Assembly: GCA_903842345.1 (NCBI GenBank) | Contig: CAIMLR010000042.1 | Coordinates: forward strand, 21,744-85,743 | From: an uncultured Myxococcales bacterium | GTDB taxonomy: Bacteria > Myxococcota_A > UBA9042 | Direction of reading: 5' to 3' | DNA length: 64,000 nucleotides | Shown: piece after piece, positions 14,803-39,662 of the stretch | Layout: each line of letters opens with the position of its first letter | How positions within the stretch are numbered: position 1 is the stretch's first letter | Program-made: the position numbers and the translations under genes | Notes under the pieces: model-generated | Database searches by the model: none | What the model saw: only the letters and a program-made list of their open reading frames with translations | What the model was told of the DNA's origin: nothing

Positions 14803-15016
14803 GGTACTACCTCCTTGCGCCAAGGCTCAGCCTCGGCCATGATTGCAACGTCGCTCGCCAAGTCGCGGACGACCCACCCGATCTTGCGACCTTTTGGCGG
14901 CCTGTCAATGGACCTGTAGGGGATGGGCGCCATGAATATGAACCGCCCACGGCACGACACCGAACCGTCACATCCTCGATCTTCGTTTGGTTGCCCCAAG
15001 ATTCCGTAACATATTG

Positions 15017-16201
15017 ATGCTAGGTGAAATTTTGACACAGCCGTCCCCGCAGAACGAATCACCATTTTTGCAAGCCCGTCGTCTGATTCGGGTCAGCCAA
15101 ACCGTCGCAGGCGATCTCGCCGGCGTCTCACGTCAGGCGATCGGCGCGTTGGAGAAGGGCGAAAGAACTCCAAAGGTCCCGGAGCTACTCAAGCTTGCGT
15201 CGTTGTACCGACTCCGGCCCGAGACGCTTTTGGCGGGCGGCGAGCTCCTTACGGGCGCCGCGCCGCGCGGTCTTGCGCTGTTTCGCGCCGCCGATGGGGC
15301 GCAGTTGACCGCCCACGACAAGCGCGAAATTTTTCTCGCGGAGCAGGCGCTGGAGTCGTGGTCCACTCCGACGACGATGCCGGTCCTTCCACCAGGCCTG
15401 CTCGTGCCAGAAGTTTGTGACCACATCCGCCGCCTCGTCGATGAAGTCCGGATCCCGTTCGACCCGTTCCGCGCGCTCTACAACATGGGCGTTCTCCTCT
15501 GGTTCACATCGCTCAACAAAGTAGACGGGGCGATTATCCGGACAGGCGCAAGCGATCGGTGGGCCATGGTCGTCAACTCGGACCAGCCGGACGACCGGAT
15601 CCGCTTTTCTGCTGCGCACGAGCTTGCCCACGCCGTTCTAGGACATCGCGGTTGGGAGCATCTCCACATTGATGCGTTTGGCGCGCCACGCGACCAGCAG
15701 GACAAGGACGCAGACCAGTTCGCCGGCGAGTTGCTGATGCCCGCGACATCGTTGCTGCGCGAAATCGAGTCCTACCGGAACGGAGACAACCTATCAGAAC
15801 TCTTGTACAGAATCGCAGACCGCTTTCAGGTCAGCTACGCTGCCGTCGTCGTACGATTCGGGAATCTTGGTGTCTTCACGCCCGCCACCGTCGAGCAGCT
15901 CCGGACGATCAGGCCAACTGATTTGGAGGCAAGGCTTGCTCTCAAAACGAAGCGCGTCGAGAAATTTCAGGGCGATGCAGTGCTTCCGGCCTTGTGCGAC
16001 AAGTTGGTGCGCGAGCAACGTTTGTCTGCCGGCTGGAACGCGGACTTCGCAAACGGTTGGTATCACGTGCGAACCATCCAGAACGCGGCCGTTCGCCAGT
16101 ACATCCAGACGGTCCGGCCCATCGACCGGGCAGACAGCATCAACCAGGTGCACCAGGCCGTTGCCGCGTGGATCGCTCGCCAATTCCCGTGCGCTTGGTA
16201 G
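15017..16201 (+). CDS. XRE-family HTH fused to an ImmA/IrrE family metallopeptidase
   Basis: SQTVAGDLAGVSRQAIGALEKGER HTH. RIRFSAAHELAH (HExxH), ADQFAGELLMP and FQVS motifs; extra C-terminal ~70 aa. Confidence 0.9.
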   Translation: MLGEILTQPSPQNESPFLQARRLIRVSQTVAGDLAGVSRQAIGALEKGERTPKVPELLKLASLYRLRPETLLAGGELLTGAAPRGLALFRAADGAQLTAHDKREIFLAEQALESWSTPTTMPVLPPGLLVPEVCDHIRRLVDEVRIPFDPFRALYNMGVLLWFTSLNKVDGAIIRTGASDRWAMVVNSDQPDDRIRFSAAHELAHAVLGHRGWEHLHIDAFGAPRDQQDKDADQFAGELLMPATSLLREIESYRNGDNLSELLYRIADRFQVSYAAVVVRFGNLGVFTPATVEQLRTIRPTDLEARLALKTKRVEKFQGDAVLPALCDKLVREQRLSAGWNADFANGWYHVRTIQNAAVRQYIQTVRPIDRADSINQVHQAVAAWIARQFPCAW

Positions 16202-17542: not shown

Positions 17543-17617
<75 letters not shown>

Positions 17618-17765
17618 ATTCTTTCCACACCACCCGGCGCGCGCGGCCCCGTTGCGGCGGATTCGTATCGCGGCGCGCCGTCCGCGTCAACTCCACTCGC
17701 ACCGAATCCGCCGGCGTGGCATCCTACACGCCCGATTCCGGCCGCTCCAGCCGTCAGGACTTCCC

Positions 17766-20700: not shown

Positions 20701-23279
20701 ACGTCGCGGTGCGCGGTGCGCGCGTCCACAACCTGCGCAACATCTCGCTCGACGTGCCGCGCGACCGCTTTACGGTCGTCACGGGACTTTCGGGTTCGGG
20801 CAAATCCAGCCTCGCGTTCGACGTTGTGTTCGCGGAAGGTCAGCGGCGTTTTCTCGATTGCCTTTCGCCCTACGCGCGCCAGTATTTGCCGCCGGCGAGC
20901 CGCCCCGACGTCGAGAGCCTCGCGGGACTGCCGCCGACCGTCGCGATCGCCCAGCGCACGACGCGCGGCGGCACGCGGTCGACGGTCGCGACCCTCACGG
21001 ACATTTACCCGTACCTGCGCCTGCTCTACGCCCGCTGCGGCACGCAGCTTTGCCCCAAGTGCGGCGGCGCGGTTTCCGGCCAGACGGCGACGGACGTGGC
21101 CGACGCAATCACGGAGCGCTTTGGTCAGGCGCCGGTCTACGTGATGGCGCCGGCCGTGCGCGGCCGCAAGGGCCACCACCAAGGCATCGTCGATCGCGCG
21201 ATCGGGTTCAGTCACGCCTGGCTGCACGTCGACGGCGCGCTGGTGCCCATCGAGGCCGTGCCGCCGCTGCGGCGCTTCGTCGTGCATGACATCGATTTCG
21301 TCGTCGCGCGCATTCCCGGCGACGTGCCCAACCGCGCGGCGCGGATTGCCGAAGCCGTGGACATCGCGCTGGGTCTGGGTGACGGAACGGTGATGGCGCG
21401 AACGTCGGAGACGGCCGCCGTGCCGTGGTCGCTCCGGCGGCACTGTGGCCGCTGCGATATCTCCGTGGAGGCGCCGGATCCGCGGCTGTTCACGTTCACG
21501 TCGGCCGCGGGCTGGTGCAAGTCGTGCCAAGGGACCGGCATCGAGCCCGCGGTGGTCGCGGACAAGCCCAAGAAGCGCAAGAAAACCAAGGAAGACGGCA
21601 AGTCCACGGCCGATCTGGCAAAGTCCGGCCTGCCCGATGGCGGCGAGAAGTTGGACGAAGATGCCGTGCGGTTGGTGGAGGCCTGTCACGCGTGCCAAGG
21701 GAGCCGCTTGCGGCCGGAAGCGCGCTCCGTGCTTGTCGCGGGCCAGACAATCGACGTGGCCGTGCGCCAGGGCCCGGCAAAGCTGCAAACGTGGCTGGAG
21801 GCGGTGCGCTGGAACCGCCGTGATGCCCAGGTCGCCGATCCCATCGTCGCGGAAGTGGCCGCCCGCTGTGCGTTCCTGCAGCGCGTGGGCCTCGATTACC
21901 TGGCGCTCGGCCGCGCGGCGACGACCCTGTCCGGCGGCGAGAGCCAGCGCATTCGACTCGCGGCGCAATTGAGCTCCAACCTGCGCGGCGTGCTGTACGT
22001 GCTCGATGAGCCGACGATCGGCCTGCATCCCGCCGACAACGCCAAGGTCCTCGATGCGCTCGATGGCCTTGTGACGCGCGGCAACGGCTTGCTTGTCGTG
22101 GAACACGATGAGGAGACGATTCGGCGCGCGGACCACATCATTGAGCTCGGGCCGGGTGGCGGCAATACCGGCGGGCAGTTGGTGTTCCAGGGCACGCTGG
22201 CGGAATTGCTGGTGGCCAAGGACTCGCCCACGGGTCAGGCTTTGCGCGATCCGCACACGCGGCGCGTGCGCAAGGAGCCGCGTCCGGCCGCGGAGCACTT
22301 CATCACGGTGCGGGGCGCGCGCCACAACAACCTGCAAAACGTGACGGCAAAGTTCGCCCGCGGTCGCTTCAATGCAGTGACGGGCGTGTCAGGCTCCGGC
22401 AAGTCGACGCTGGTGCGGGATCTGCTGGTGCCGGTGGGCAACGCGATGCTGCAGGAGCAGGCGTTCGTCGCGGATCTGGACGGCATCGATGGCCTGACCG
22501 GCTTTGGCCGCATCGTGGAGGTGGACCAGAGCCCGATTGGCCGCACGCCGCGCAGCTGTCCGGCGACCTACATGGCGATTTTCGACGACCTCCGCGCGCT
22601 CTTCGCCAACCTGCCTGACGCCAAGGTGCGCGGACTGACCGCCAACAAGTTCAGCTTCAACACGGCGGGCGGGCGCTGCGAGACGTGCCTCGGCGCGGGC
22701 CAGGTGCGCGTGGAAATGAGCTTCCTGCCGACGGTCTTTGTGCCGTGCGAGGCGTGCCAGGGCCGGCGCTATCAGGAGCCGGTGCTGGCCGTGCGGCACA
22801 AGGGCGCGTCCATGGCCGACGTGCTGGCGATGTCGATGGCGGAAGCGGCCAACCACTTCGCCGCAGTGCGGGCGGTCGCGGCGCCGCTGGAGCTGGCGGT
22901 GCAGCTGGGCCTCGGCTACCTGACGCTGGGCCAGGGGAGCCACACGCTGTCAGGTGGCGAGGCGCAGCGCTTGAAGCTCATCCTCGAGCTGGCCAAGAAG
23001 CGGCGGACGGAGACGCTGTATGTGCTCGACGAGCCGTCGACGGGTCTGCACCTGGAGGACGTGCGCAAGCTGCTGGGCGTGCTGCACGCGCTGGTCGACC
23101 GCGGCGACACGCTTGTTGTCATCGAGCATCAGCTGGATATCGTGAAGGAGGCCGATTGGCTCGTCGATCTGGGCCCGGGTGCGGGCGAGAGCGGCGGTCA
23201 GCTGACGTGGCAGGGCGGTGTGCGGGAGCTCGTGAAGTCCAAGCTCAAGACGCCGACCGCGGTGGCACTGCGGGTCTAG
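17766..23279 (+). CDS. uvrA: Double-length excinuclease ABC subunit A (about 1837 aa)
   Basis: Four Walker A (G[VL]SGSGKS), four LSGGE signatures, four LDEP(S/T)xGLH and CxxC Zn fingers. GTG 17766 start. Confidence 0.93.
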
Positions 23280-26588: not shown

Positions 26589-26791
26589 TGCCTGCCTCAG
26601 CGGGTCGGTCTGCGCCCGCGCCACGGCCGATCACGATAGCCAAAGCGGCGCGGAAACGCGAGTTACGCATCGGTGCGCCCGCTCAACACTTTCTTGACCT
26701 GTTGGATGAGGCCGCCTAGCCTTGGCGATAACTGGCACAGTGTCGCATTTTGCGGCATTGCAGTTGGAAACGACCTTGGAGACCCTCCCGC

Positions 26792-27847
26792 ATGGCGGTC
26801 AAGAACGCAGTCGGCCTTGATATCGGCACCTCGTCGATCAAGGTTGCCCATGTCCAGGAGACCAAAAAAGGCGTCCAGCTGCTGGCGTTTGACACGATCA
26901 TGTTGCCGCCGGACACCATCCGCGACGGCCAGATCCTCAACGCGCCGCAACTGGTCCAGCGGATCCAGGAACTGTTCGCGCTCAACAAGATCAAGCACAA
27001 GCAGGTCGCCGTTTCGCTCTCCGGCCACTCCGTGATCATCAAGAAGATCTCGCTGCCAGAGATGACGCTCGCGGAGCTGGAAGACTCGATCCAGTGGGAA
27101 GCCGAGCAGTATATTCCTTTTGATATCAAAGACGTGAACGTCGACTTCCAGATCATCGATCCGCACGCCGGTCAGGCGCAGATGGACGTGCTGCTGGTGG
27201 CTGCCAAGAAAGCCGTGATCGAAGAGATGTGCGAAGTCGTGCGCGCCGCCAAGCTGGAGCCGGTGCTCGTGGATGTGGACGCTTTTGCGCTCTACAACGC
27301 GTTTGAGCTCAACTTTCCGATTCCGATGGACCAGACAGTCGCGCTCATCAACGTCGGCGCGTCGACGATCAACATCAACGTGGTGTCGGGCGGCATGACG
27401 TCCTTCACCCGCGACATCACGGTGGGCGGCAATCTGCTGACGGAAGAGATTTCCAAGCAATTCGCGGTGCCCTGGGAAGAAGCGGAGCACATGAAGACAA
27501 CGTCGGAAACGACGCTGTCCATGTCCGGCGTGCTGCGCGAAGTGCAGCGCATTTCGGGTCGCGTGTCAGAAGTGCTGATTGCTGAGATCCAGCGGTCGCT
27601 GGACTTCTTTGCCGCGACGGCGATCAACGCGGACATCAGCGCCGTGTATCTGTGTGGTGGCGCGGCGTTGCAGTCCGGGCTGATCGAAGGCATGGAGCGG
27701 CGCCTCGGCACGCACGTGCGCGCGCTCAACCCGTTCAACAACGTGGTGATCGACCCCAAGAAGTTCGATACCGCACTTCTGCAGCGCATGGCTCCTCTCG
27801 CCTCGGTGGCGATGGGGCTGGCCTTGCGTAAACCCGATGATCGGTAA
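26792..27847 (+). CDS. pilM: Type IV pilus assembly protein PilM
   Basis: VGLDIGTSSIK, QWEAEQYIPF, LINVGAS and LCGGAA; heads a pilMNOPQ operon. Confidence 0.95.
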   Translation: MAVKNAVGLDIGTSSIKVAHVQETKKGVQLLAFDTIMLPPDTIRDGQILNAPQLVQRIQELFALNKIKHKQVAVSLSGHSVIIKKISLPEMTLAELEDSIQWEAEQYIPFDIKDVNVDFQIIDPHAGQAQMDVLLVAAKKAVIEEMCEVVRAAKLEPVLVDVDAFALYNAFELNFPIPMDQTVALINVGASTININVVSGGMTSFTRDITVGGNLLTEEISKQFAVPWEEAEHMKTTSETTLSMSGVLREVQRISGRVSEVLIAEIQRSLDFFAATAINADISAVYLCGGAALQSGLIEGMERRLGTHVRALNPFNNVVIDPKKFDTALLQRMAPLASVAMGLALRKPDDR

Positions 27848-27862: not shown

Positions 27863-28951
27863 GTGCTGCTGATGATCCGGATCAACCTGCTGGGCAGAGC
27901 CAAGGGCCAAAAGGGCGGTAAGCGCAGCTTTACCCTGCCGCGCATTCCCAACGTGGGTTTGCTGCTCGCGCTGTTGATCCTGGTGATTGAAGGCGCGGTT
28001 GCGTTCCAGTGGTCGCAGCAGGCAGCGGACACGGCGAACAAGCTGGAGAGCAAGGGTCGCAAGCTGCGGGAAGAGGTCGACGACTTCGCGAAGGTCAAGA
28101 CGGAAGCCGACGAGCTCAAGCACAAGCTGGAAGAAAGCGGCAAAGAGAAGCTGATCTTTGACGAGCTGATCGCGGAGAAGATCGGCCCCGCCAACGCCTT
28201 GACGTACCTGTCCTTCATGCTCGCGCCGCGCAAGGAAGCCGAAGTCCCGGGCGATGAATTGAAGCAGATGGAGTTGGCAGGCTGGCGCGTCAATTGGCCG
28301 GGCGAGAAAGCGCGGGCGTGGCTGACGTCGATCAAGGAGCGCGATGGCGAAGTGACGCTTGTCGGCGGCGCGGTGGATCACGGCGACGTGGCGGAGGTCG
28401 CGCGGCGTCTGGAGGCGAGCGCGCATTTCCGCGAGATGAAGCTCGTGTCGCAAGAGCGCAAGGTCGACAACCAGTTGGGCGTCACCTACATCGAATTTAC
28501 GATTCGCGGCGCGATGATCTATCTGGTCGATCCGTACAAACCCGCTGGCGCGGAAGGCGAACCGCCGCCGCAAGCTGCAGATGCGGATGCCGACGCGACT
28601 TCTGGCGATGGCAGCGCTGCTGGCGATGCTGAAGATGGCGTAACGGTCCTGAAATCCGCGTTGCTCCCGCCCGCCGATGCCGCCAATGGCGAAGTGGACG
28701 CCGGCCCGACGGACGTCGATGCGCAGGCACCTGAGACGAAAGAAGAGAGGGACGCCGGCCCGCCGCCCATCGTGCCCAAGCCCGCAGCGCCAGCCGCCGC
28801 GGCCGAACCGGAGCGCAAGCCCGCCACCGCCCCGCTTTTGCAGGAAGCCGTAGAACCGCCGCCCGCCGATCGCGCCGCCGACCCGGGTGATCCGGGCGCA
28901 GCACCCGCACCCTCAGCCCCGTCCGCCCCCGCTGGCGGCGAAAACCCATAA
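27863..28951 (+). CDS. pilN: Type IV pilus assembly protein PilN with a long Pro/Ala/acidic tail
   Basis: IRINLL PilM-binding motif, TM, coiled coil and PilN core. Confidence 0.88.
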   Translation: MLLMIRINLLGRAKGQKGGKRSFTLPRIPNVGLLLALLILVIEGAVAFQWSQQAADTANKLESKGRKLREEVDDFAKVKTEADELKHKLEESGKEKLIFDELIAEKIGPANALTYLSFMLAPRKEAEVPGDELKQMELAGWRVNWPGEKARAWLTSIKERDGEVTLVGGAVDHGDVAEVARRLEASAHFREMKLVSQERKVDNQLGVTYIEFTIRGAMIYLVDPYKPAGAEGEPPPQAADADADATSGDGSAAGDAEDGVTVLKSALLPPADAANGEVDAGPTDVDAQAPETKEERDAGPPPIVPKPAAPAAAAEPERKPATAPLLQEAVEPPPADRAADPGDPGAAPAPSAPSAPAGGENP

Positions 28952-28961
28952 GGAGCAGCGC

Positions 28962-29696
28962 ATGGACCAGTTCATGAAACTGCCACCTGGCCAAAAAGCC
29001 GCCGTCCTCGCGGCGGTGTTGGCCGTGATTGGTCTGGGCATGTACTTCTTGCTCGTCGACCCGCAGTTGGGCCGGGCCGCGGCCGCGCGTGCGACGCTGC
29101 AGAAGACGGAGAAGGAACTCTCTGACCTCAAGGCTGAAGCGAGCCAGGAAGAGTTGGCCAAGCTGCGCAAACAGAACGACGAACTGAACGAGAAGAACAA
29201 GGAAGCCAAGAAGATGCTGCCGGCCTCGGAAGAGGTGCCTGACCTCATCGACTCCGTGCAAAACGATGCGGTTCACGTGGGTTTGCAGGTCCGACGCTTT
29301 GACCGGCTCAAAGAGCAGAATCAGGATATGTACCTGGCGATCCCGATCCGCATGGTCGTGGACGGCAAGATGAACGACCTGATCCGCTTCCTGCGGATCT
29401 ACGCCGGCAATGACCGGCGCGTCGTGCACATCAAGGAACTGACGATCGAACAGACGGCGCCGGACGCGGAAGTCATCAAGAAGAAGATCGCGGCCTCGCA
29501 GCCGGACGGCAAGGCCTCCCAGCGCGCCGTGATCACGCCCGAAGATCGGCTGCTGCAGGCGATCGAGGAAGCGGAGTTGGTGTATGATCTCGTGACGGTC
29601 CGCGCGACGTTCACGGCGTACGCCTACACGTGGACGGGCAAGCCGGCGCCGCAGGGCACCGCCATTCCCGTTCGCAACAACCGCAAGCGCACGTAG
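28962..29696 (+). CDS. pilO: Type IV pilus assembly protein PilO
   Basis: TM, coiled coil, LPASEEVPDLI and YLAIPIRMVVDG; AGGAG RBS; synteny. Confidence 0.88.
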   Translation: MDQFMKLPPGQKAAVLAAVLAVIGLGMYFLLVDPQLGRAAAARATLQKTEKELSDLKAEASQEELAKLRKQNDELNEKNKEAKKMLPASEEVPDLIDSVQNDAVHVGLQVRRFDRLKEQNQDMYLAIPIRMVVDGKMNDLIRFLRIYAGNDRRVVHIKELTIEQTAPDAEVIKKKIAASQPDGKASQRAVITPEDRLLQAIEEAELVYDLVTVRATFTAYAYTWTGKPAPQGTAIPVRNNRKRT

Positions 29697-29714
29697 CCGG
29701 AGCAAACGAGACCC

Positions 29715-30383
29715 ATGGTCCTGACGCAGAAGCCCAATTTGCCCCAGCCCGCCGCCCGCCGCTCCACGGCGGCTTTGGTGTTGTTGGCGTTCTTGGCGGC
29801 GTGCGGTGGCAGTGCGCCGGAAAAAAAGCCAGCGCCAGACGAGAGGCCCAAGCCCAAGGCGCCCGTGCCGGAGCCCGCGGAAGGCGGCGCGTCGATCGAT
29901 GGCTGGATCGTGCTGGGCGAAAATCCCAAATGGAAGCCGATCAAGCCGCTGTTTGAAACGTATGCGAAGCGCGAAGTGACGGGGCTGCACAACCCGATGC
30001 GCTCGAATCTGACGGCGTTTGTCGAGAAGCCCGTGCCGACCGCGACGCGCGCGGAAGACGAAGTCGTCGACAAGCCGAAGGAAAAATTGGAGGACACGCC
30101 GTTCACGCGCGTCAAACTCGGCACCCTGACGCTGATTGTGCTTGTCACCGGCGTCGCCCAGCCCAAGGCAGTGCTGCTGGACGGTGAGGGCAACCAACTC
30201 GTCGTCATGCGCGGCGACCACCTCGGTTCAGAAGGCGGCGTCGTCAAGGCGATTACCCAATACGAACTGCAAGTTTCTGTCCCGGGCGAACCTGACGTCG
30301 TCAAGTCGCTCAAGCCGCCGCTGAATCCAGTGGAAGAACTCGACGCCGAGACTCAAGGTGCCGGCAAGAAGCCCGAACTGTGA
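29715..30383 (+). CDS. pilP: Type IV pilus lipoprotein PilP
   Basis: Lipobox LAAC; NPMRS and LTLIVLV..PKAVLLDGEG..VMRGDHLGSEGGVVKAI; synteny. Confidence 0.85.
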   Translation: MVLTQKPNLPQPAARRSTAALVLLAFLAACGGSAPEKKPAPDERPKPKAPVPEPAEGGASIDGWIVLGENPKWKPIKPLFETYAKREVTGLHNPMRSNLTAFVEKPVPTATRAEDEVVDKPKEKLEDTPFTRVKLGTLTLIVLVTGVAQPKAVLLDGEGNQLVVMRGDHLGSEGGVVKAITQYELQVSVPGEPDVVKSLKPPLNPVEELDAETQGAGKKPEL

Positions 30384-30401
30384 GCCAGAGGTAAACTGCC
30401 G

Positions 30402-33400
30402 ATGAAGATCACAATGCTGCAAAAGACGACCCCGCCGTTGCTGGACCGCAAGTCCGCACTTTCGCGGGCCATTAGCCAATTGCTCGTCGTCGCGATGGCG
30501 CTGCCGGCGCCGATGGCGACCGCGTGGGCCAACGAGCCCGGGCGCGCGACGCAAGCGGTCGTGTCCCTGCTGGGCATCGACGTGCAGGAAGCGCCGCAGA
30601 CGACCGTCATCACGGTGCACGGCAGCACCGTTCCGACCTTCACGACCTACCGGCTGGACAAGCCGCAACGGCTGATCGTCGACGTCGTCGGCGCCAACGT
30701 GACCGCCAATGAGCCGCGCTTCGTCCAAAATGGCGTGGTGCGTTCCGTGGAAGCGGTGCCTTTCAAGCGCGGTGCGGCCAATTTTGGCCGGGTGATCGTG
30801 ACATTTGAGCAGGACGCGCTGTACCACGTGCGGGCGGAGGGCAATAGCGTCGTCATCGTGGTGGACGGCAGCGATCGCAAGCTGAATCAGGCGCAGACCG
30901 CACAGGTGGCCGCCGCCGAAGAAGCGGCGCGCACGGCGGCGCAGCGCGAGCGGGATTTGGCCGCGGAACTGCGGAAGTCGCGGCAGCGGGAGGAAGACGC
31001 GCAGACCGCGCAGCACGACGCCCAGGTGGCGCAGCGCAAACTGCAAGACGACCTGGATGCCCTGAAGCAGCAGGCGGGCGACAAAGCCGCGCTGGAAGCC
31101 AAGCAGGCGGAGATCAGCCAGTCGGCGGCGGCGTTGGACGCGGCGAATCAACGGCTCAAAGAAGAGCAGGACGCGGCCAAGAAGCTGCGCGAACAGCTCA
31201 ATCAAGAACGCCAGAGCCTGGCGGCGGTGATCGCCCAGCGCCAGTCGGAAGAAGCGCGGATTGAACTGCTGCGCCAGAAGATTACGGAATTGCAGCGGGA
31301 TACGCAGCGCAAGGATGATGCGCGGATCGCCGGATTGCAGGCGGAGCTCGAGCGCGCGCGCAAGCAGGCGGAGCAGTTGCGGACCGATGCGCGGGACATC
31401 GCGGGATCGCGGCGCACGGCGCAAGCGGAAGAAGTCGCGCACTTGAAGAAGGTGCTGGCCGGCAAGGACGCGGAGTTGCAGGGCGCATTGGCGCGGTCAG
31501 ATGCGGCGTCCAAGGCGCAGGCGGCGCAGCTCAAGCAGGAGCTCGGTCAGGCGCGCGATCAGTTGAAGCAGACGCAAACGGCGCTGGAACGCGCGGCCAA
31601 GGCCGATGCCGAGCGCGAGCTGGCAGAGCGCAAATGGCGCGAGGCGGAGCAGCGGGCCGTGCGCGCGGAGCAGGAGCTGGCGGCGCGGACGGTCGAACTG
31701 TCCAAGAGCCGGGCGGAGACGGCGGATTTGGCGCGCCAGAAGAAAGAAGCCGACGCGCGAGCGACGGAAGTGGCCCGGCTGCTGACCGAGCGCGAGCGCG
31801 AGATTGAGGGCGTGAAGCTGGCGCTGAAGGAACGCGAGTCCCTGCTGACGGCGGAGCTGGCCGCGGCCAAGGATCGCGAGGCGGCAGCGGCCAAGGCCGG
31901 TCGGCAGACGGAAGCCGAGCAGGCGGCGCGCGAGCGGACGGAACTGGAAAAGCGCCAGAGCGCGCTGACCGGCGAACTGGCTGTGCGCGAGAAAGAACTT
32001 GTGCAGGCGCGCCACGATGCGGCGGACAACCAGCAGGCCCGCGCCCAAGCGGAACAGGAAGCAGAGCGGTTGCGCGCGGAGCTGGCCAATCGCGAGCAGG
32101 CGCTGCGGAGCCTGCAACAGGGCAAGTCGACGGCCGACCAGAAGAAGCTGGCGGAGGCGGAAGCGCAAGTGCAGGCGGCGCGCGCGCAACTGCAGTCGCA
32201 GCTGGCGGAACGCGACCAGAAGATGGCGGCGCTGCAGAAGCAGGTGACCGGCGAACTGGCGCAGATGCACAAGCAGCTGGAAGGCCTGCGCGGCGATCTG
32301 GCCGCGGCGAAGCAGGAGACGCGGGACGCGCGTGAGACGGCCCAGACGCGCGAACTGGAACTCCAGGCGACCAAGGCGAGCGCGCAGGAACGCGAGAAAG
32401 CGCTGCAGGCGGCGAAAGAGACGGCGGACAATCGCGCGGCGCAAGTGGCGCGGCTGTTGGACGAGCGCGAACGGCAGATTGGCGCGATGCGCACCGACCT
32501 GCAGACCCGCGAGGCGACGCTGACGGCCGAGCTGACGCAGGCCAAAGCGCGTGAAGTGGCGGCGCAGAAAGCCGGCAAGAAAGCGGAAGTGGAAGCGGCG
32601 GCCAAGACGCGGACTGCGCTGGAAAAAGAACAGTCGGCGCTGCGCAAGGACCTGGCGTCCCGCGAGCGCGATCTGGCGAGTGCGCGACAGGAAGCGGACA
32701 AGAACGCGACGGCGCGGCGGCAGGCCGAGCAGCAGGCGGAGACGCTGCGGCAGGAACTGGCCCACCGCGAGACGGAACTGGAGACGCTGCGCGCGGCAGG
32801 CGACGGCGCGGCGCGCAAGAAGCTGGGTGACGCGGAAGCGCGCGTTGCGGCGACCCGGCAGCAGTTGCAGGTGCAGTTGGCGGATCGCGATCGCCAGTTG
32901 GCGGCGACCGAGCAGCGCTTGCAGGCGCAGATGGACCAGGTCAAGGCGGAGTTGGCGCGGACCAAGGCGGAGTCGGCGCGCAAGGACCGCGAGCTGACGG
33001 CGGCCCGCGAGCAGGAAGCGCGGCAGAAGAAGCTGGCGGACCAGGTGTCGACGCAGTTGCACGATCGCGAAGAAGAGATCGCGGGCCTGCGCAAGTCCGT
33101 GCAGGCGCGCGAGGCCAGGCTGCAGGCAGCGATGACGTCCGCGCGTGAGGCCGAACACAAGGCGCAGCGCGAAGGTCGGGCGCAGGATGCGGCCAAGGCC
33201 AAGGCGGAGCGCACGCGGCTGGAAGTGCAGCAGGCAGACCTGCGCAAGGAACTGACGGCGCAACAGGCGAGCCTCGCGGACGCGCGGCAGGAAGCGGCGC
33301 GGCAGGCGGAAGCGCGCCAGAAGGCGGAAGCGGACGCGCGGCGCCTGCAATCGGCACTTGCCGATCGCGAGCAGGCTTTGGCGGCGCTGCAGAGCACGTC

Positions 33401-36400
33401 GGCGTCGGCGGCAGAGCTGGAACACGCGCGCAAGTCCGTGGAAGAAGCGCGGGCGCGGCTGAGCGAGCAGGAAGTTGCGCAGGCGGCCCGGCTGGCGGAA
33501 ATGCAGACGCAGTTTGACGGCCGGCTGGCCAAGATGCAGGGCGAAATGCTGGCGGCACACGCCCGCGAACTCGCGGATCTGCGGGCTGAGCGGGAAGCGC
33601 GGGAAAAGCAGTCGCAGGAGCGCGCGGCGCGTGTGGAAGGGCTGCTGAAGGATCGCGAGAGCGAGCTCAAGCGCCTGCAGGATGAAGTGAAAGTGCGCGA
33701 GATGACGCTCGCGGCGCAGCTGGAAGACGCCAAGGCGCGCGAGCAGGAAGCGTCGGCCAAGGGCCAGGAAGCCGAGGCGCGCAAGGCCGCGGTCGATCGC
33801 CAGAAGCTGGAAACGGCGATGGCGCGGCTGCAGGACGACGTGAAGGCGCATGAGCTCGCGCTGGCATCAGCGCAGCAGGATGCCAAGGCGCAAGCGGATG
33901 CCCGCGCTCAGGCGGAACAGCAGGTGCAGTCGCTGACCGTGGCGCTGCGCGAACGCGAACAGGCGCTTGCGTCGGCGCGGCAGTCCGGCGGCACGAACGC
34001 GGGTCGCGTGGCTGAAGCGCAGGCGGATCTGGACAAGGCGCAGCTGGAGCATTCTGCGGCGCTGGCGGCGCGCGACGCGCAGATCCAGAAGCTGGAGCAG
34101 GACGTGGAAGCGCGCATCGCGCAGGTACGCGAGGAGTTGGCGGTCGAGCACAAGAAACGGGAAGCGGCGCTGGCGCAGCAGATGGAGAAGCAGAGCGAGC
34201 AGTATGAAGCGCGCATTGCGATGACCGAAGCGCAGGCGCAGAAGGCGAGCGAGCATGAGCAGAAGCTCTCGACCTTGCTTTCCCAGCGGGAACGCGAGCT
34301 GAAGGCGCTGCAGACGCAGCTCGGCGAGCGGCTGGCCAATCTGGACGCGGAGACGGCGGACGCCAAAGCGCGCGAGCTGGCGGCACAGAAATCGGGACAG
34401 ACGCAGGCGGCGGCCGCGGCGGTGCGCGACCAGAAGCGGCTGCAGCGCGAGCTGGGCGAGGCGCGCAAGCAGATGCGCGAGCGCGAAGTGGCCATCAACA
34501 CGGCGCGGACCGAGGCGATCAGCCAGCAGAAAGCGCGCGAAGAGACCGACAAGCGGGCGCGGGCGCTGACGGCGACGCTGGAAGCGCGCGCGGCGGAGCT
34601 GCAGGAGTTGCAGCGCGATTCCAAGGCGGATCGGGCGCGCGTGGCGGCGGCTGAGAAGGCCGTGACGGAAGCGAAGGCGCGGCTGGAAGCGACGGAGCGG
34701 GCGCGGGCGGACGCGGATCGCGCGACGCAGAAGCGACTCGAACAGGAAATTGCCAGCGTGCGCAAGCAGATGGCGGCGGAAGCGGCGGCGCGTGAGAAGG
34801 CGCTGGCGGACCAGTACGCGGCGCGCGAGTCGGAGCTGCAGTCGCAGTTGAAGCAGTCCGAGACGCGGCGCAAGGCGGCGGAATCGACGGCGGCCAAGAC
34901 CGCGCCGATGGACGATTACCTGAAGCGCCAGCAGGCGCGCATCGCCGTGCTGGAATCGCGCGCCGATCGCGAGCGCGAGTCGCGGCAGGAAGTGGCCAAG
35001 CTGGCGCAGGACGAGCGCAAGCGCGCGGAAGAACTGCAGCAGCAGCTGGCCGAGGAGCGCGCGGAAAAGGCGCACAAGGATCAGGAGCTGGAGACGCTGC
35101 GGCGGCAGGCGGCGCAGGCGGACGCGGCGGCCAAGAAGGCGCAGCAGCGGGACGTGGACAAGCAGGCGGCCGCGGCGGCGGAGAAGCAGAAGACCCTGGC
35201 GGCGCAAGCCAAGGCCAAGGATGAAGACGGGCTGCGGCGCGAAGCGGGGGCTGAACGGCAGCGGGCGCGGCAGGATCGCGGCGGCGATGTGCAGGGCACG
35301 CTGATCCAGGACGTTGCGATCACGGCGGAAGGCAAGGAGCGCGGCCACCTCGTGCTGCCGCTCAACGCGCAGATCAAGGCGAGCCAGGTTGTGGTGTTGA
35401 GCCGCGATGCGCACCGCCTCGTGCTGCGGGTGACCGGCGCGCGTGTGCCGGAACGGCTGCAGAAGACCTACGACACAGGCGGGCTGCAGGGTCCGATGGA
35501 CCGCGTGACGGTCTTCTCGCCGGAAGGCCAGAAAGAAGAAGTGCGCGTTGTCGTGGACCTGAATGAAGGCGTGACCGACCGCCTGCGCGTGGAAGGTGAC
35601 CGCGTCCTGTGGGATTTTGAGCGGCTTGACGCCCGCGCGACGAACGTGAAGTCGGCGTTTGCCCAGAAGGGCGGCGCGGTCAAGACGGGCGGCGAAGGCC
35701 TGGCGGTTGCGCCGCAGCCGGCCCAAGCGGCTGAAGATCCCAGTGGCGGCGGCGGTGCTCCCCCGAGCGGCGTGGGCGGCGGATCAGCGGCGGAGTCGCA
35801 GGGCGTCAACGCTGACCCGATTCGCGCACCGTGGCGCAAAGCGCGCCGCTACACCGGCAAGCGCATCAACCTGACCATCAAGGACGCCGACATCCAGCAC
35901 GTGCTGACGTTCCTCGCCAAGGAAGGCAAGGTCAACATCATCGCCGGTCCGGAAGTCAGCGGCAAAGTCACGTTCCACCTGGAGAACATCCCGTGGGACC
36001 TCGCGCTGGACGTGATCCTGCGCGCCCGCGACCTCGACTACGTGCGCCAATCCGGCGTCATTCGCGTCAGCACGCGTGAAGCGCTGCGCAAAGAGTTTGA
36101 ACAGGAGGTAGAAAGGCGACAGAAGCTCGAAGACGTCAAGCAGCTCGTCGTCCGGATCATCCCGGTAAACTACAGCCAAGCGACTGAAATCGCGCGCCAA
36201 GCCAAGGAACTGAACTCCAAGAAGGGCACGTCCTCGGTCGACACGCGCACCAACGCGCTCATCGTCAAGGACACGGAGGAGCACGTTGCGGCGATCGAAG
36301 AGATGGTCCGCAAGCTCGACACGCAGACCCCGCAGGTGCTGATTGAAGCGCGCATCGTGGAAGCGCAGAGTTCGTTCAGCCGCGACGTCGGCGTCCAGTG

Positions 36401-37151
36401 GGGCGGCAACTTCGCGGCCTCCAGCTTGTACGGCAATGAAACGGGCCTGTCGTTCCCATCGGCGCTCGGCATCGCGGGCGGCGCGGACTCCAACGGCGGC
36501 ACCGCCGGCCTCGGCAGCTCTGTCCCCATCACGACGCCAAACTACGCGGTCAACTTGCCAGCGGCCGTCGGTAGCGGCGCGGGCGGCGCGATTGGCTTCT
36601 CGCTCGGTTCGCTCGGCGGCGCCGCCAACTTGAATCTGCGTCTGTCGGCCGCGGAAACGGAAGGTACCGTCAAGATCGTTTCCAGTCCCAAGGTGCTGAC
36701 GCTGGACAACACGACGGCGACCATCAGCCAAGGCGTGCAGATCCCGATCTCGGTGGTCAGCGCCCAAGGCGTGCAGACGCGCTTCTTTGACGCCCGCTTG
36801 CTGCTGTCGGCCACGCCGCACATCACGCAGGACGGCAACATCGCGATGAAGGTCCGCATCACCAAGAACGAGCCGGACTTCTCCAATCGCGCGGCGGACG
36901 GCAATCCCTCCGTGAACACGCGTGAAGCGCAGACGGACCTGCTGCTCGGCGACGGCGAGACGACGGTCATCGGCGGCATCTATACGCGCTCGACCTCGAC
37001 GGCCATCAAGAAGGTGCCGATCCTCGGCGACCTGCCCTTCATCGGCGTGCTGTTCCGCAGCCACTCCGATCAGGACAAGCGCACGGAACTGCTCATCTTC
37101 ATCACGCCGCGCATCGTCAATCGTTCGACCGCCATTTCCGTGGGCAAATAG
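30402..37151 (+). CDS. pilQ: Giant type IV pilus secretin PilQ (2249 aa) with a ~1470-aa coiled-coil insertion
   Basis: Signal peptide (AWA), AMIN (aa ~53-156), coiled coil (~160-1630), second AMIN (~1634-1740), N0 (YTGKRINL), N3 and secretin (PQVLIEARIVE...ELLIFITPRI). Confidence 0.93.
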   Translation: MKITMLQKTTPPLLDRKSALSRAISQLLVVAMALPAPMATAWANEPGRATQAVVSLLGIDVQEAPQTTVITVHGSTVPTFTTYRLDKPQRLIVDVVGANVTANEPRFVQNGVVRSVEAVPFKRGAANFGRVIVTFEQDALYHVRAEGNSVVIVVDGSDRKLNQAQTAQVAAAEEAARTAAQRERDLAAELRKSRQREEDAQTAQHDAQVAQRKLQDDLDALKQQAGDKAALEAKQAEISQSAAALDAANQRLKEEQDAAKKLREQLNQERQSLAAVIAQRQSEEARIELLRQKITELQRDTQRKDDARIAGLQAELERARKQAEQLRTDARDIAGSRRTAQAEEVAHLKKVLAGKDAELQGALARSDAASKAQAAQLKQELGQARDQLKQTQTALERAAKADAERELAERKWREAEQRAVRAEQELAARTVELSKSRAETADLARQKKEADARATEVARLLTEREREIEGVKLALKERESLLTAELAAAKDREAAAAKAGRQTEAEQAARERTELEKRQSALTGELAVREKELVQARHDAADNQQARAQAEQEAERLRAELANREQALRSLQQGKSTADQKKLAEAEAQVQAARAQLQSQLAERDQKMAALQKQVTGELAQMHKQLEGLRGDLAAAKQETRDARETAQTRELELQATKASAQEREKALQAAKETADNRAAQVARLLDERERQIGAMRTDLQTREATLTAELTQAKAREVAAQKAGKKAEVEAAAKTRTALEKEQSALRKDLASRERDLASARQEADKNATARRQAEQQAETLRQELAHRETELETLRAAGDGAARKKLGDAEARVAATRQQLQVQLADRDRQLAATEQRLQAQMDQVKAELARTKAESARKDRELTAAREQEARQKKLADQVSTQLHDREEEIAGLRKSVQAREARLQAAMTSAREAEHKAQREGRAQDAAKAKAERTRLEVQQADLRKELTAQQASLADARQEAARQAEARQKAEADARRLQSALADREQALAALQSTSASAAELEHARKSVEEARARLSEQEVAQAARLAEMQTQFDGRLAKMQGEMLAAHARELADLRAEREAREKQSQERAARVEGLLKDRESELKRLQDEVKVREMTLAAQLEDAKAREQEASAKGQEAEARKAAVDRQKLETAMARLQDDVKAHELALASAQQDAKAQADARAQAEQQVQSLTVALREREQALASARQSGGTNAGRVAEAQADLDKAQLEHSAALAARDAQIQKLEQDVEARIAQVREELAVEHKKREAALAQQMEKQSEQYEARIAMTEAQAQKASEHEQKLSTLLSQRERELKALQTQLGERLANLDAETADAKARELAAQKSGQTQAAAAAVRDQKRLQRELGEARKQMREREVAINTARTEAISQQKAREETDKRARALTATLEARAAELQELQRDSKADRARVAAAEKAVTEAKARLEATERARADADRATQKRLEQEIASVRKQMAAEAAAREKALADQYAARESELQSQLKQSETRRKAAESTAAKTAPMDDYLKRQQARIAVLESRADRERESRQEVAKLAQDERKRAEELQQQLAEERAEKAHKDQELETLRRQAAQADAAAKKAQQRDVDKQAAAAAEKQKTLAAQAKAKDEDGLRREAGAERQRARQDRGGDVQGTLIQDVAITAEGKERGHLVLPLNAQIKASQVVVLSRDAHRLVLRVTGARVPERLQKTYDTGGLQGPMDRVTVFSPEGQKEEVRVVVDLNEGVTDRLRVEGDRVLWDFERLDARATNVKSAFAQKGGAVKTGGEGLAVAPQPAQAAEDPSGGGGAPPSGVGGGSAAESQGVNADPIRAPWRKARRYTGKRINLTIKDADIQHVLTFLAKEGKVNIIAGPEVSGKVTFHLENIPWDLALDVILRARDLDYVRQSGVIRVSTREALRKEFEQEVERRQKLEDVKQLVVRIIPVNYSQATEIARQAKELNSKKGTSSVDTRTNALIVKDTEEHVAAIEEMVRKLDTQTPQVLIEARIVEAQSSFSRDVGVQWGGNFAASSLYGNETGLSFPSALGIAGGADSNGGTAGLGSSVPITTPNYAVNLPAAVGSGAGGAIGFSLGSLGGAANLNLRLSAAETEGTVKIVSSPKVLTLDNTTATISQGVQIPISVVSAQGVQTRFFDARLLLSATPHITQDGNIAMKVRITKNEPDFSNRAADGNPSVNTREAQTDLLLGDGETTVIGGIYTRSTSTAIKKVPILGDLPFIGVLFRSHSDQDKRTELLIFITPRIVNRSTAISVGK
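31749..34860 (+). repeat. Five diverged tandem protein-level repeats (196-225 aa) inside pilQ
   Basis: Anchor motif [LQ]Lxx(R/E)ExE(I/L) at 31779, 32454, 33054, 33642 and 34275. Each is followed by AKARE-x5-G-like and LAxREQAL-like motifs. Confidence 0.8.
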
Positions 37152-37154
37152 CGC

Positions 37155-38780
37155 ATGGCGAACGTGGTGCTGGTCGGCATGCCCGCGTCGGGCAAGACGT
37201 CCGTGGGCGCAAGCGTCGCGGCTTCGTTGGGGCTGACTTTTGTCGACCTGGACGCGCACATCGGCCAGATCGCCGGGCTCAACGTGGCGGACCTGTTGCG
37301 GCGCGAGGGCGAAACCACGTTCCGGCTGCGGGAGGCTGAGGCGCTCGATCGCGCGCTGGAAGGCGACGGCAAGCTGCTGGCGAGCGGCGGCGGTTCCCCG
37401 TGTTTTCACGACGGCATGAACCGGATGCGCGCCGCGGCGCACGTGATTTGGCTGGACGCGCCGGTGGACGCACTTGTGGAGCGAACGCTGCAGGACGGCG
37501 ACCGGCCGCTTCTGGGCCACACGCGGCTGGAGCAGACCGTGGCGCTGCGGGATTTGGCTGAGCGGCGCACACCGACCTACGCCCGCGCGCATCGCCGGGT
37601 GGACGCGACCCAACCGCTGCCGGCCGTGGTTCGGCAGGTTCAGGCGGCGCTGCGGCCGTCCGTCCAAGCGACGATCGCTTTTGAAGGCGTGGAGCATCCG
37701 CTCGTCATCGACGATGGGCATGTGAGCGACGCGGCGGATGCGCTGGCGGAGCTCGCCGGAAGCGGCAAGATCGCCCTCATCGTCGACCGCAAGGTGCGCG
37801 CGCAGGCCGAGCCGCTGGAAGCGATGCTCAAGGCGCGCGGCATCATGACCGTGCTGCTGGAAGTGCCGGGCGGTGAAAAGTCCAAGGATCTGCGGACGGC
37901 GGCAAAACTGTGGCAGGATCTGGCGCAGCATCAGTTTGACCGTTCGGACCTGCTCGTGGCGATTGGCGGGGGCGCGACGACGGACGTCGGCGGCTTTGTC
38001 GCGGCGACCTGGCTGCGTGGCGTGCGCCACGTCGCCATGCCGACGACCGTGCTGGCGATGGCGGACGCGAGCGTCGGTGGCAAGACGGCGATCGACCTGA
38101 ACGTGGGCAAGAACCTGGTTGGCGCATTCCATCCGCCAGCGCTGGTCTGGCTGGCGCTCGGTGCGCTGGAGACGCTGCCCGGCGTGGAATGGCGCAGTGG
38201 TCTGGCGGAAGTCGCGAAGATCTTTGTGGCGTTGGACGCCGATGCCTGGCGCGCGCTGTTGCGGGATGCCAAGTCGCTGCGGCGGCGCTCCGTGGCCGCG
38301 CTCAAGCCGCACGTGCAGCGCGCGGTCGAGCTCAAGGCGGAAATCGTCGCCCGCGATCCGCGGGAGCAAGGCGATCGCGCACTCCTGAACTTGGGACACA
38401 CGCTGGGGCACGCGCTGGAGGTCGATTCCGGCTTTACGCTGCGGCACGGCGACGCGGTGGCGCTGGGGCTGATCGCGGCGGCGGAGCTGTCCGTTGCGCA
38501 CGGCACGGCCGATGCGAACTTGGCCGTGGAACTGCGCGCTGGCTTTCAAGCGCTGGATCTGCCGACCCAATGGGAAGCGATGGCGACGCCCGCGGTGCTT
38601 GGGCGGCTCGGTCAGGACAAGAAGATGCGCGGCGAGCTGCTGCGGTTTGTCGAAGTGGCAGCAATCGGACGGGCGGTTGTTCGTCCTTGCCGCGTCAAGG
38701 AACTCGAGAGCATGCTGGCGGCCTTGGCGGCCCATGCGCAACGGCCGGCGGTTGCATCCGTCGGCGGGATGCGGAGGTAG
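37155..38780 (+). CDS. aroKB: Fused shikimate kinase / 3-dehydroquinate synthase
   Basis: GMPASGKT...FRLRE...SGGG (AroK), then GGGATTDVGGF, DASVGGKTA, KNLVGAFH, LNLGHTLGHALE and HGDAV (AroB). Confidence 0.93.
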   Translation: MANVVLVGMPASGKTSVGASVAASLGLTFVDLDAHIGQIAGLNVADLLRREGETTFRLREAEALDRALEGDGKLLASGGGSPCFHDGMNRMRAAAHVIWLDAPVDALVERTLQDGDRPLLGHTRLEQTVALRDLAERRTPTYARAHRRVDATQPLPAVVRQVQAALRPSVQATIAFEGVEHPLVIDDGHVSDAADALAELAGSGKIALIVDRKVRAQAEPLEAMLKARGIMTVLLEVPGGEKSKDLRTAAKLWQDLAQHQFDRSDLLVAIGGGATTDVGGFVAATWLRGVRHVAMPTTVLAMADASVGGKTAIDLNVGKNLVGAFHPPALVWLALGALETLPGVEWRSGLAEVAKIFVALDADAWRALLRDAKSLRRRSVAALKPHVQRAVELKAEIVARDPREQGDRALLNLGHTLGHALEVDSGFTLRHGDAVALGLIAAAELSVAHGTADANLAVELRAGFQALDLPTQWEAMATPAVLGRLGQDKKMRGELLRFVEVAAIGRAVVRPCRVKELESMLAALAAHAQRPAVASVGGMRR

Positions 38781-38783
38781 CGG

Positions 38784-39662
38784 ATGACAACGTGGCAAAT
38801 CACAGGACTGACGTGCGTGCTGGCGGCGAGCCTGATCGGCTGCGCGCACAGCGGCGATTCGCAGGTGCTGCAGTACCGCGGCGCGGTCCAACCGCTCCGG
38901 ACGGGCCAGAGCTGTCAGGCGACGGACACGACGCGGCTGCTCGACCACCCGGTGCTGGATCTGGCGATGGCCAAGAGCTACCGGTTCTTTCCGGCGCTGC
39001 AGAGCATGTTGCCCAAGCTCACGGCCATTCCCGGCATCAACCCGAACGTGCAGGACACGAACACCATCAACATGACGTCGATGACCGTGTCGGTCCAGTC
39101 GGGCATGCTGAGCACCTCGCCTTTTGGCAACAAGACGGGCGTGGCCGGCGGACCGACGTCGCCGACCAAGACGTGGACCGTCCCGATGTCCGGCACGATG
39201 GAAGCCCAGGGCACGCTCATCACCGGAGCGGATCTGGTGCCGGAAAAGGCGCTTGTCGGCTCCAAGTTCGTCCCGGTCGGCGAGGACTGGCGGAGCCGCT
39301 TCTGGAGCTCCGCGACCGGAAGCACCAAGGACTTCTCCAAGGTTGAAATCATCCTCAGCTTCCAGTTCACCGGCGTCACCTTGTCCGGCGACAACGTCAT
39401 CACCGACGTGGCGACGCTGCCGATGACGGTTTGCTACGGCTGCCTGCTGACGCCGGCCACGGTTTCGCCGACCGTCGACGCCGGGTCGTACTACGCGGGC
39501 TGCGGCACCGCCGTGGTGCCTGCCGACGCCCTGATCTCCTGCCTCCCCGGCCAGGACGACTACATGGATTGCCGCTACTACTGCCACGAGTGCCAGAAAT
39601 CCAAGCCGACCAACGGCCCCGGGTACGACGGCTGCGACACCAAAACGCTCTGTGTGCCGTGA
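38784..39662 (+). CDS. Hypothetical lipoprotein with Cys-rich C-terminus
   Basis: Lipobox LIGC; VCYGCL and CLPGQDDYMDCRYYCHEC. Confidence 0.75.
   Translation: MTTWQITGLTCVLAASLIGCAHSGDSQVLQYRGAVQPLRTGQSCQATDTTRLLDHPVLDLAMAKSYRFFPALQSMLPKLTAIPGINPNVQDTNTINMTSMTVSVQSGMLSTSPFGNKTGVAGGPTSPTKTWTVPMSGTMEAQGTLITGADLVPEKALVGSKFVPVGEDWRSRFWSSATGSTKDFSKVEIILSFQFTGVTLSGDNVITDVATLPMTVCYGCLLTPATVSPTVDAGSYYAGCGTAVVPADALISCLPGQDDYMDCRYYCHECQKSKPTNGPGYDGCDTKTLCVP

Follow-up and report, generated by a model that had tools for sequence, protein, structure and literature searches.

How pilus machines are fixed in place, spaced at the cell pole and made to tolerate retraction loads above 100 pN is a question on which one gene of an uncultured Myxococcales bacterium bears. 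The gene, pilQ, lies at positions 30402-37151 on the forward (+) strand of a 64,000-nucleotide (nt) stretch of contig CAIMLR010000042.1, which is referred to here in its entirety as the window. It encodes a type IV pilus secretin roughly three times the usual size. To our knowledge, PilQ is linked to the cell wall only through its AMIN domains, and in this protein the two AMIN domains stand 1472 amino acids (aa) apart. What occupies this interval, whether it is real and what it might do for the pilus machine are the subjects of this analysis.

The gene is one uninterrupted open reading frame (ORF) of 2249 codons with an ATG start and a GAGG sequence ~10 nt 5′ of it. The GC content of its frame by codon position (0.75/0.46/0.85) is the usual coding signature for a high-GC genome. 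The gene order is pilM-pilN-pilO-pilP-pilQ followed by a fused aroK-aroB gene, with gaps of 3-18 nt overall and of 15-18 nt among the genes ahead of pilQ, and the Pfam domains of the products together with this spacing bear out the first-pass annotation of the locus, which had described a giant 2249-aa PilQ encoded by a single ORF within an intact pilMNOPQ-aroKB operon. The order of elements in the protein is signal peptide, AMIN1, helical spacer, AMIN2, a Gly/Ala/Pro linker, N0, N3 and secretin. Pfam detected AMIN in two stretches (best 59-152), and AMIN profiles built from the family itself set the limits of the two domains. The parts of pilQ are as follows.

30402-37151, + strand: pilQ, entire gene, 2249 aa
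30402-30530, + strand: putative Sec signal peptide, approximately aa 1-43 (...ATAWA followed by NE), read off the translation
30555-30875, + strand: AMIN1, aa 52-158, distal peptidoglycan-binding domain (Pfam and profile; predicted beta-sandwich in the AlphaFold2 (AF2) model)
30876-31772, + strand: N-proximal helical region, aa 159-457, with the best-conserved blocks of the rod (predicted helices 163-223, 228-299 and 306-364, and the start of 368-498)
31773-32447, + strand: rod module r1, aa 458-682 (self-match by phmmer and hidden Markov model (HMM)), invariant Gly at aa 500
32448-33056, + strand: rod module r2, aa 683-885 (phmmer/HMM self-match), invariant Gly
33057-33641, + strand: rod module r3, aa 886-1080 (phmmer/HMM self-match), invariant Gly
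33642-34271, + strand: rod module r4, aa 1081-1290 (phmmer/HMM self-match; AF2)
34272-34886, + strand: rod module r5, aa 1291-1495 (phmmer/HMM self-match; AF2)
34887-35291, + strand: C-proximal helical region, aa 1496-1630 (135 aa), with Pro 1502 and a conserved block at 1501-1530
35292-35651, + strand: AMIN2, aa 1631-1750, proximal peptidoglycan-binding domain (Pfam and profile)
35652-35876, + strand: flexible linker, aa 1751-1825, 18% Gly, 17% Ala and 10% Pro (composition)
35877-36074, + strand: N0/STN, aa 1826-1891 (Pfam STN 1844-1891, type_II_gspD_N0 1826-1870)
36150-36335, + strand: N3/Secretin_N, aa 1917-1978 (Pfam, E 7e-12)
36648-37118, + strand: secretin pore domain PF00263, aa 2083-2239 (Pfam, E 8.5e-48, full profile coverage)

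The C-terminal 430 aa found their best solved relative in PilQ of Myxococcus xanthus (3jc8, E 5e-140), followed by PilQ of Pseudomonas aeruginosa (1e-79), with GspD at <= 4e-30. Secretins of type IVa pilus (T4aP) systems, and not those of type II or type III secretion systems (T2SS, T3SS), are the closest solved relatives. By every testable sequence criterion the protein is a genuine member of the T4aP PilQ family. The first-pass annotation had further placed a distal AMIN domain on a long helical tether, and this arrangement was recovered with AMIN1 at 52-158 and AMIN2 at 1631-1750.

The window comes from a metagenome assembly and the encoded protein contains internal repeats, both of which favour an artefact, in which pilQ would have been chimerically joined to a coiled-coil gene unrelated to it, or a repeat collapsed or expanded. 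The exact window sequence was, however, present in pond-metagenome runs from two studies. A single contig from one run (X2) spans 29500-37961, and thus the whole of pilQ, with 0 differences; a second (X1) spans 29500-36834, also with 0 differences, and ends 317 nt short of the stop codon. Contigs from two runs of the second study (X4 and X5) tile most of the gene with short gaps between them; among RNA-seq runs, none with the gene could be listed. DNA repeats inside pilQ reach at most 85% identity, in copies of just 19-27 nt, and at most 76% at lengths of at least 44 nt; because they are so short and diverged, mis-assembly by repeat collapse is unlikely. Apparent contig joints proved to be chance matches of 20-25 nt to unrelated contigs and were dismissed.

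Relatives of the gene argue in the same direction. In the protein database, an orthologue of 2261 aa matches the window's PilQ from end to end at 87% identity, and 57 more PilQs measure 1260-2646 aa. A survey using one representative genome per GTDB species found 73 loci, in which all complete pilQ ORFs with a C-terminus at least 48% identical to that of the window were 1220-2787 aa long. The same architecture is encoded, colinearly, in at least 45 species-level genomes. With these colinear orthologues, the difference-free contigs and a coding-frame GC content at third positions (GC3) of 0.85, an artefact is almost certainly not the explanation, and the chimeric join against which the first-pass annotation had cautioned did not materialise. 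In the database the long-spacer proteins are labelled merely 'type IV pilus secretin PilQ', an annotation that masks a three-fold range of size.

The spacer (aa 159-1630) is composed of 23% Ala, 13% Glu, 12% Gln, 12% Arg, 10% Leu, 7% Lys and 5.5% Asp, with 2.3% Gly and a sole Pro at residue 1502, in agreement with the earlier description of residues 160-1630 as rich in A/E/Q/R/K/L and almost free of Pro. Strongly hydrophobic residues make up ~15% and Ala is abundant. When heptad patterning was scored by taking the best register in each 28-residue window, the hydrophobic contrast at a/d positions was 0.338, compared with 0.207 +/- 0.007 in composition-matched shuffles (~19 standard deviations), and because this contrast lies so far above the shuffles the rod is more than a compositional oddity. 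The autocorrelation of the sequence peaks at lag 14 (identity 0.169 vs a baseline of 0.122), and pairs of opposite charge at i+3 and i+4 are enriched (z ~4). A Fourier scan in 70-aa windows gave best periods clustering at 3.45-3.65, with low power and with 6 of the 21 rod windows elsewhere; the register-based score was the more informative measure. The heptad register shifts ~30 times along the rod, leaving blocks of 38-136 aa.

Within the rod, r1-r5 lie in tandem and are divergent versions of a single ~200-aa unit (phmmer i-E 7e-34 to 6e-10). Profile searches showed that the number of copies follows the length of the protein: PilQs with four copies are 2076-2143 aa long, those with five 2249-2330 aa, those with six 2374-2476 aa and those with seven 2603-2787 aa. 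The step is visible in a locus (L002) whose C-terminus is 94% identical to that of the window and which has exactly one more module, of 224 aa. At column 42 of the module profile, in the motif A-x-[KR]-A-G-[RK]-x-x-E-A, all 116 non-redundant copies carry an invariant Gly. From a set of 1.84 billion representative proteins, the module profile returned the PilQ family of the window, three short fragments and one zinc-ribbon protein; the last (P0183), a coiled-coil protein considered as a second home of the module, was rejected as a generic coiled-coil match. A profile search of the PDB gave generic coiled coils at E >= 1e-3 only, and thus no solved relative of the module. A homologue search with the N-terminal 460 aa returned one partial fragment, the query being dominated by low-complexity words.

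The rod evolves under purifying selection. Compared with three related species, the ratio of nonsynonymous to synonymous substitution rates (dN/dS) was 0.086-0.104 over 1471 rod codons, alongside 0.06-0.08 for N0-secretin, 0.05-0.14 for AMIN2 and 0.014-0.023 for AMIN1, which is the most constrained part of the whole PilQ. Across 20 orthologues the column identity of the rod to the window's sequence is 40-70%, with peaks of conservation at aa 151-180, 271-300, 331-360, 391-420, 1081-1110, 1231-1260 and 1501-1530.

The fold of the rod was approached by structure prediction. AF2 modelled r4-r5 from a 17-row alignment with a predicted local distance difference test score (pLDDT) of 86.8 and a predicted template modelling score (pTM) of 0.49, placing helices at 2-39, 43-114, 120-251, 254-325 and 331-414 in the numbering of the model; the breaks between them coincide with the invariant Gly and with a Gly/Ser/Asp/Asn-rich loop. 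A second model, of aa 45-700 (pLDDT 78.9), contained the AMIN1 beta-sandwich and helices at 163-223, 228-299, 306-364, 368-498, 502-572 and 577-699. Extended over all modules, the pattern gives 15 helices of 61, 72, 59, 131, 71, 147, 71, 121, 71, 118, 72, 132, 72, 90 and 107 aa, and hence 14 predicted helix breaks in the whole rod. In the predicted layout each module has a constant helix of 71-72 aa between the invariant-Gly turn and the loop, and long helices of 118-147 aa join neighbouring modules. Foldseek superposed ~190 residues of the r4-r5 model on three-helix BAR, F-BAR, IMD and designed bundles with a root-mean-square deviation of 5-8 Å, which would be impossible for a straight 28-nm helix, and the model is therefore folded back on itself. 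Covariation, measured as mutual information with average product correction, offered a weak but independent check: the anti-diagonal i+j = 84-85, which corresponds to the hairpin around the invariant Gly, ranked 2nd of 308 (z 2.8-2.9), whereas the second predicted hairpin did not rise above background (z 0.7).

Taken at face value, these models predict a spectrin-like connectivity in which a long helix passes from one bundle into the next. The first-pass annotation had called the region a ~1470-residue coiled coil of up to ~220 nm. Heptad patterning does support coiled-coil character, but the notion of one continuous coiled coil was rejected in view of the ~30 register blocks, the 14 predicted breaks and the fold-back in AF2. 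Likewise, the arithmetic behind ~220 nm is right for one uninterrupted helix, yet this value is an upper bound that would apply only if all rod helices were collinear; if every break were a hairpin, the predicted helix lengths would give an end-to-end distance of ~35-70 nm, which is equally possible.

Long-spacer PilQ is family-wide in several mostly uncultured Myxococcota lineages, with the family of the window at the extreme. All complete PilQ ORFs in these lineages have two AMIN domains split by a helical spacer of 242-2027 aa, and in clades that carry one the spacer is retained in every complete ORF. Its composition across lineages is 74-89% A/E/Q/R/K/L/D, with Pro and Gly together at 1-4% in nearly all. 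Spacer lengths by lineage were as follows.

Bradymonadales-like: 243-658 aa
Haliangiales/Kofleriaceae: 244-1045 aa
Two further clades of metagenome-assembled genomes (MAGs): 412-692 aa
Sister clade of the window's family: 472-1450 aa
The window's own family: 1377-2027 aa

Among the PilQs compared, a helical spacer is absent from those of Polyangiaceae, Sandaracinaceae and Myxococcus type. The position between the AMIN domains is taken in Polyangiaceae and Sandaracinaceae by a Pro/Gly-rich linker of 9-45 aa, and in the ~900-aa PilQs of Myxococcus type and of Thermodesulfobacteriota by a third AMIN domain. A search that started from a protein labelled 'Haliangium sp.' (P0037) and was aimed at long spacers in cultured genomes found only MAGs. 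In one Thermodesulfobacteriota MAG (L148), a three-AMIN PilQ of 1243 aa has a 375-aa spacer between AMIN 2 and 3; with 58% A/E/Q/R/K/L/D and 10% Pro/Gly, this is a different type of insertion at a similar position.

To relate the domains of long and short proteins, AMIN1 and AMIN2 profiles were trained on long-spacer PilQs and then scored on the domains of short PilQs. The first AMIN domain of PilQ from Sorangium, Labilithrix and Myxococcus-type bacteria scored as AMIN1 (90.6 vs 20.7 bits for domain 1 of L112), and the last AMIN domain of short PilQs scored as AMIN2 (102.9 vs 5.9 bits for domain 3 of L112). Since AMIN1 is thus the orthologue of the first AMIN domain in short PilQ and AMIN2 that of the last, the rod is an expanded inter-AMIN linker rather than a fusion to a foreign gene. 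Profiles of the N- and C-proximal rod found almost nothing beyond the close family, and the periods of internal repeats differ by lineage (25/50, 31/62, 32/64, 54/108 and ~210-230 aa), so that elongation by tandem duplication must have occurred repeatedly. For the spacer itself, one ancient gain with losses or several gains may be envisaged, both of which fit the midpoint-rooted neighbour-joining tree.

Two sets of relatives illustrate changes of length at close range. A 2476-aa relative from ENA (P0005) carries an exact tandem duplication within the rod, with a period of 221 aa and a lag-221 identity of 0.32; the duplication is either very recent or an assembly artefact. A group of near-identical PilQs (P0016-P0022) has lengths of 1958, 1968, 2008, 2018 and 2058 aa, with steps that are multiples of 50 aa and a 25-aa repeat, which points to length polymorphism at the level of the population, judging from these sequences.

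In M. xanthus and P. aeruginosa, polar assembly depends on the AMIN domains of PilQ, which attach to the peptidoglycan of septa and poles (PMC10653833); peptidoglycan binding, polar recruitment and multimerisation have all been ascribed to them (PMC10653833; PMC2572700), and one AMIN domain suffices in M. xanthus (PMC10653833). For the protein of the window we tentatively favour a model, with a rough probability of 0.4, in which the rod anchors the machine over a long range, perhaps in an extensible manner, thereby keeping it in place and distributing the load of retraction. According to this model AMIN2, beside the pore on its flexible linker, would play the ordinary proximal role that it has in the usual PilQ, and the rod would hold AMIN1 tens of nanometres away (~35-70 nm if hairpinned, up to ~220 nm if stretched). 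Because both ends bind the wall and the rod exceeds the gap between wall and outer membrane, the rods would have to run along the sacculus. With 12-15 subunits, as in solved PilQ, each secretin ring would thereby have a dozen or so distant pegs in the peptidoglycan. Such pegging would fix the position of the machine and distribute the force of pilus retraction, the anchorage might itself be extensible, and the length of the rod would be tuned in evolution through gain and loss of modules.

The same architecture could instead serve as a positional ruler or capture arm, with AMIN1 as the part that recognises peptidoglycan of the septum or pole and the rod determining the distance or radius at which the secretin is recruited or assembled; the number of modules would then tune the site of pilus emergence on the pole, not mechanical anchorage. 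The exceptional constraint on AMIN1, the quantisation of length by modules and the polar or septal recruitment directed by PilQ AMIN domains in M. xanthus and P. aeruginosa (PMC10653833) would suit such a device. However, the pore-adjacent AMIN2 would bind the same wall locally, and the sufficiency of a single AMIN domain in M. xanthus leaves no obvious need for a long reach, and we regard this option as possible but unlikely. It is possible, though doubtful, that the rods pair as intermolecular coiled coils and so build a periplasmic skeleton or a lattice between machines; the resulting network along the wall, or a cage or spacing scaffold such as the first-pass annotation had suggested, would space the machines or couple them. 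A ring that presents 12-15 rods, strong heptad patterning, a residue content (hydrophobic and Ala) that fits exchangeable interfaces, and sequence-specific conservation of rod blocks that suggests defined partners would all be expected of such a network, but the AF2 monomer satisfies its hydrophobic seams intramolecularly with good pLDDT, rod sequences of different lineages show no detectable relationship, and beside pilQ no conserved partner gene was found except one uncharacterised lipoprotein. An equally doubtful variant has extensible spectrin-like struts radiating from polar secretins, and possibly linking them, as a load-bearing spacing lattice whose mesh would be set by module number; were it true, a periplasmic cytoskeleton-like element would be built into a component of a secretion system.

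A rod with no length-specific role, that is, a passive expandable spacer that grew by slippage or unequal recombination or that is removed after export, would readily account for the independent expansions with their several periods (25/50, 31/62, 32/64, 54/108 and ~210 aa), for the 242-2027-aa range of length and for the exact 221-aa duplication in one relative. Yet the spacer was never lost in complete ORFs of clades that have one, and a dN/dS of ~0.1 over the 1471 codons, the Gly invariant in 116 copies, the constant 71-72-aa helices and the conserved blocks signal structural constraint, which makes a passive or cleaved spacer improbable. The first-pass annotation had also raised adaptation to a distended periplasm or a membrane extension, and a trans-envelope spacer of this kind would have a precedent in SlpA, OmpM and Omp-alpha, in which the length of the coil scales with the width of the periplasm (PMC9388160). 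Here, though, an AMIN domain at both ends means that the rod does not lie between a wall anchor and a membrane anchor, the linker between AMIN2 and N0 is ordinary (~75 aa), and the cores of PilN, PilO and PilP are of ordinary size; since the structured parts of these partners are unexceptional and both rod ends are peptidoglycan-binding domains, we consider this proposal highly improbable.

PilQ of M. xanthus (901 aa; PDB 3jc8/3jc9), P. aeruginosa and Neisseria shares with the window's protein the N0-N3-secretin core, N-terminal AMIN domains, a flexible linker before N0 and the pilMNOPQ cluster. PilQ of M. xanthus type has a third AMIN domain and short linkers where the window's PilQ has its rod, and the solved PilQs are 571-901 aa long, compared with 2249 aa here. 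The two-AMIN PilQs of Polyangiaceae and Sandaracinaceae, such as that of Sorangium sp. So ce1099 (817 aa), belong to the same phylum and have the same domain order and a C-terminus 43-55% identical, but their inter-AMIN linker of 9-45 aa is Pro/Gly-rich rather than helical and modular.

Outside secretins, SlpA, OmpM and Omp-alpha are spacers in which a coiled coil links a wall-binding domain to an anchor in the outer membrane, and their stalk length varies by lineage (PMC9388160). Like the window's PilQ, they unite a helical stalk with a domain that binds the wall and with an assembly in the outer membrane. They differ in having SLH domains and a porin-like beta-barrel trimer, where this protein has AMIN domains and a secretin with no SLH or OMBB in Pfam, and in that their stalk is a continuous homotrimeric coiled coil from wall to membrane, in contrast to a segmented rod between two wall-binding domains. 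The likeness to spectrin-type rods (spectrin, dystrophin and alpha-actinin) lies in tandem helical modules that share a long helix and in modular length, and concerns AF2 topology only; on the strength of these models, an elastic tether of that sort is possible. The spectrin repeat is ~106 aa, whereas the rod module is ~195-225 aa with helices of ~72 aa, is periplasmic and belongs to a sequence family restricted to these PilQs. No match to Pfam Spectrin (PF00435) was found in PilQ. Among bacterial proteins, EzrA is a spectrin-type rod of three-helix bundles.

Separate proteins also tie secretins to the wall. In T4aP systems, TsaP and FimV are separate secretin-to-wall scaffolds. In the T2SS, GspB/OutB is a separate scaffold that ties the secretin to peptidoglycan (PMC9239104). 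All of these are separate proteins with other wall-binding domains, and none is known to add to the secretin itself a rod that is hundreds of residues long.

For delta-proteobacteria, de Souza et al. (2008) recorded an AMIN domain joined to a charged helical region of TolA-like character (PMC2572700). That architecture, an AMIN domain followed by a charged helix in the same broad bacterial group as the window's PilQ, is listed there apart from PilQ and without lengths, repeats, a second AMIN domain or any link to a secretin; the entry may be an early glimpse of long-spacer PilQs. No TolA family was among the Pfam matches of PilQ at E <= 0.01. In the literature searched, whose coverage was incomplete and included the AMIN survey of Herfurth et al. 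(2023) and a survey from 2026 of T4aP loci in myxobacteria, no PilQ was found described as having a helical insert of such length. The earlier impression that no secretin like this had been described holds to that extent, but the protein is no one-off, as the architecture recurs in several Myxococcota lineages. Two still larger secretin-domain proteins (P0058 and P0059; 3488 and 3470 aa) are labelled 'type II secretion system protein D' and have PF24471 and PF14611 and no AMIN domain; by their domain content they appear to be another kind of giant secretin.

The natural series of PilQs, in which the inter-AMIN distance ranges from ~20 to ~2000 residues in quantised modules, constitutes a ready-made titration of length. 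It adds a periplasmic, wall-associated, modular helical rod to the few known rod or ruler proteins of bacteria, and if the modules are extensible bundles it would provide the first spectrin-like elastic element described in a secretin.

The genes on either side of pilQ are as follows.

26750-27847, + strand: pilM (Pfam PilM_2, E 5e-70)
27863-28951, + strand: pilN, with transmembrane helix, coiled coil and PilN core (Pfam PilN at residues 152-215)
28887-29696, + strand: pilO (Pfam PilO, E 8e-20), with the likely true start at the ATG at 28962 (MDQFMK...)
29715-30383, + strand: pilP, lipoprotein with lipobox LAAC (weak Pfam PilP match, translation and gene position)
37155-38780, + strand: fused aroK-aroB, shikimate kinase and 3-dehydroquinate synthase, 541 aa (Pfam SKI, DHQ_synthase and DHQS_C), 3 nt 3′ of pilQ
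38784-39662, + strand: Cys-rich lipoprotein, 292 aa, lipobox LIGC, 3 nt 3′ of aroKB

Pfam matches and translations indicate that the cores and coiled coils of PilN and PilO, and PilP, are of the usual length. PilN has in addition a C-terminal tail rich in Pro, Ala, Asp and Glu (residues ~230-362) that continues ~130 aa past its core and is presumably disordered. The lipoprotein at 38784-39662 has a Cys-rich C-terminus and no Pfam match. It adjoins pilQ-aroKB in 13 of 15 close-family loci and in almost no other clade, and this genomic association makes it a candidate for a pilus-machine partner confined to the lineage. Long antisense ORFs over pilQ and aroKB, at 31497-33851 (-), 33867-35726 (-) and 35784-39587 (-) and of 619-1267 aa, were not accepted as genes; given the GC3 of 0.85 in the + frame, they are most likely stop-poor by-products of GC-rich sequence.

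Elsewhere in the window, an ORF at 17652-23279 (+) encodes 1875 aa with four ABC-type ATPase regions, two UvrA interaction domains and one UvrA DNA-binding domain, and from this content looks like a duplicated ('double') UvrA-like protein. Directly upstream of it lies a tRNA-Gly(CCC) gene at 17543-17617 (-), the sole RNA gene detected in the window. At 14987-16198 (+) an HTH_3 domain is fused to an M78 peptidase, an ImmA/IrrE-like arrangement typical of stress- or prophage-type regulators.

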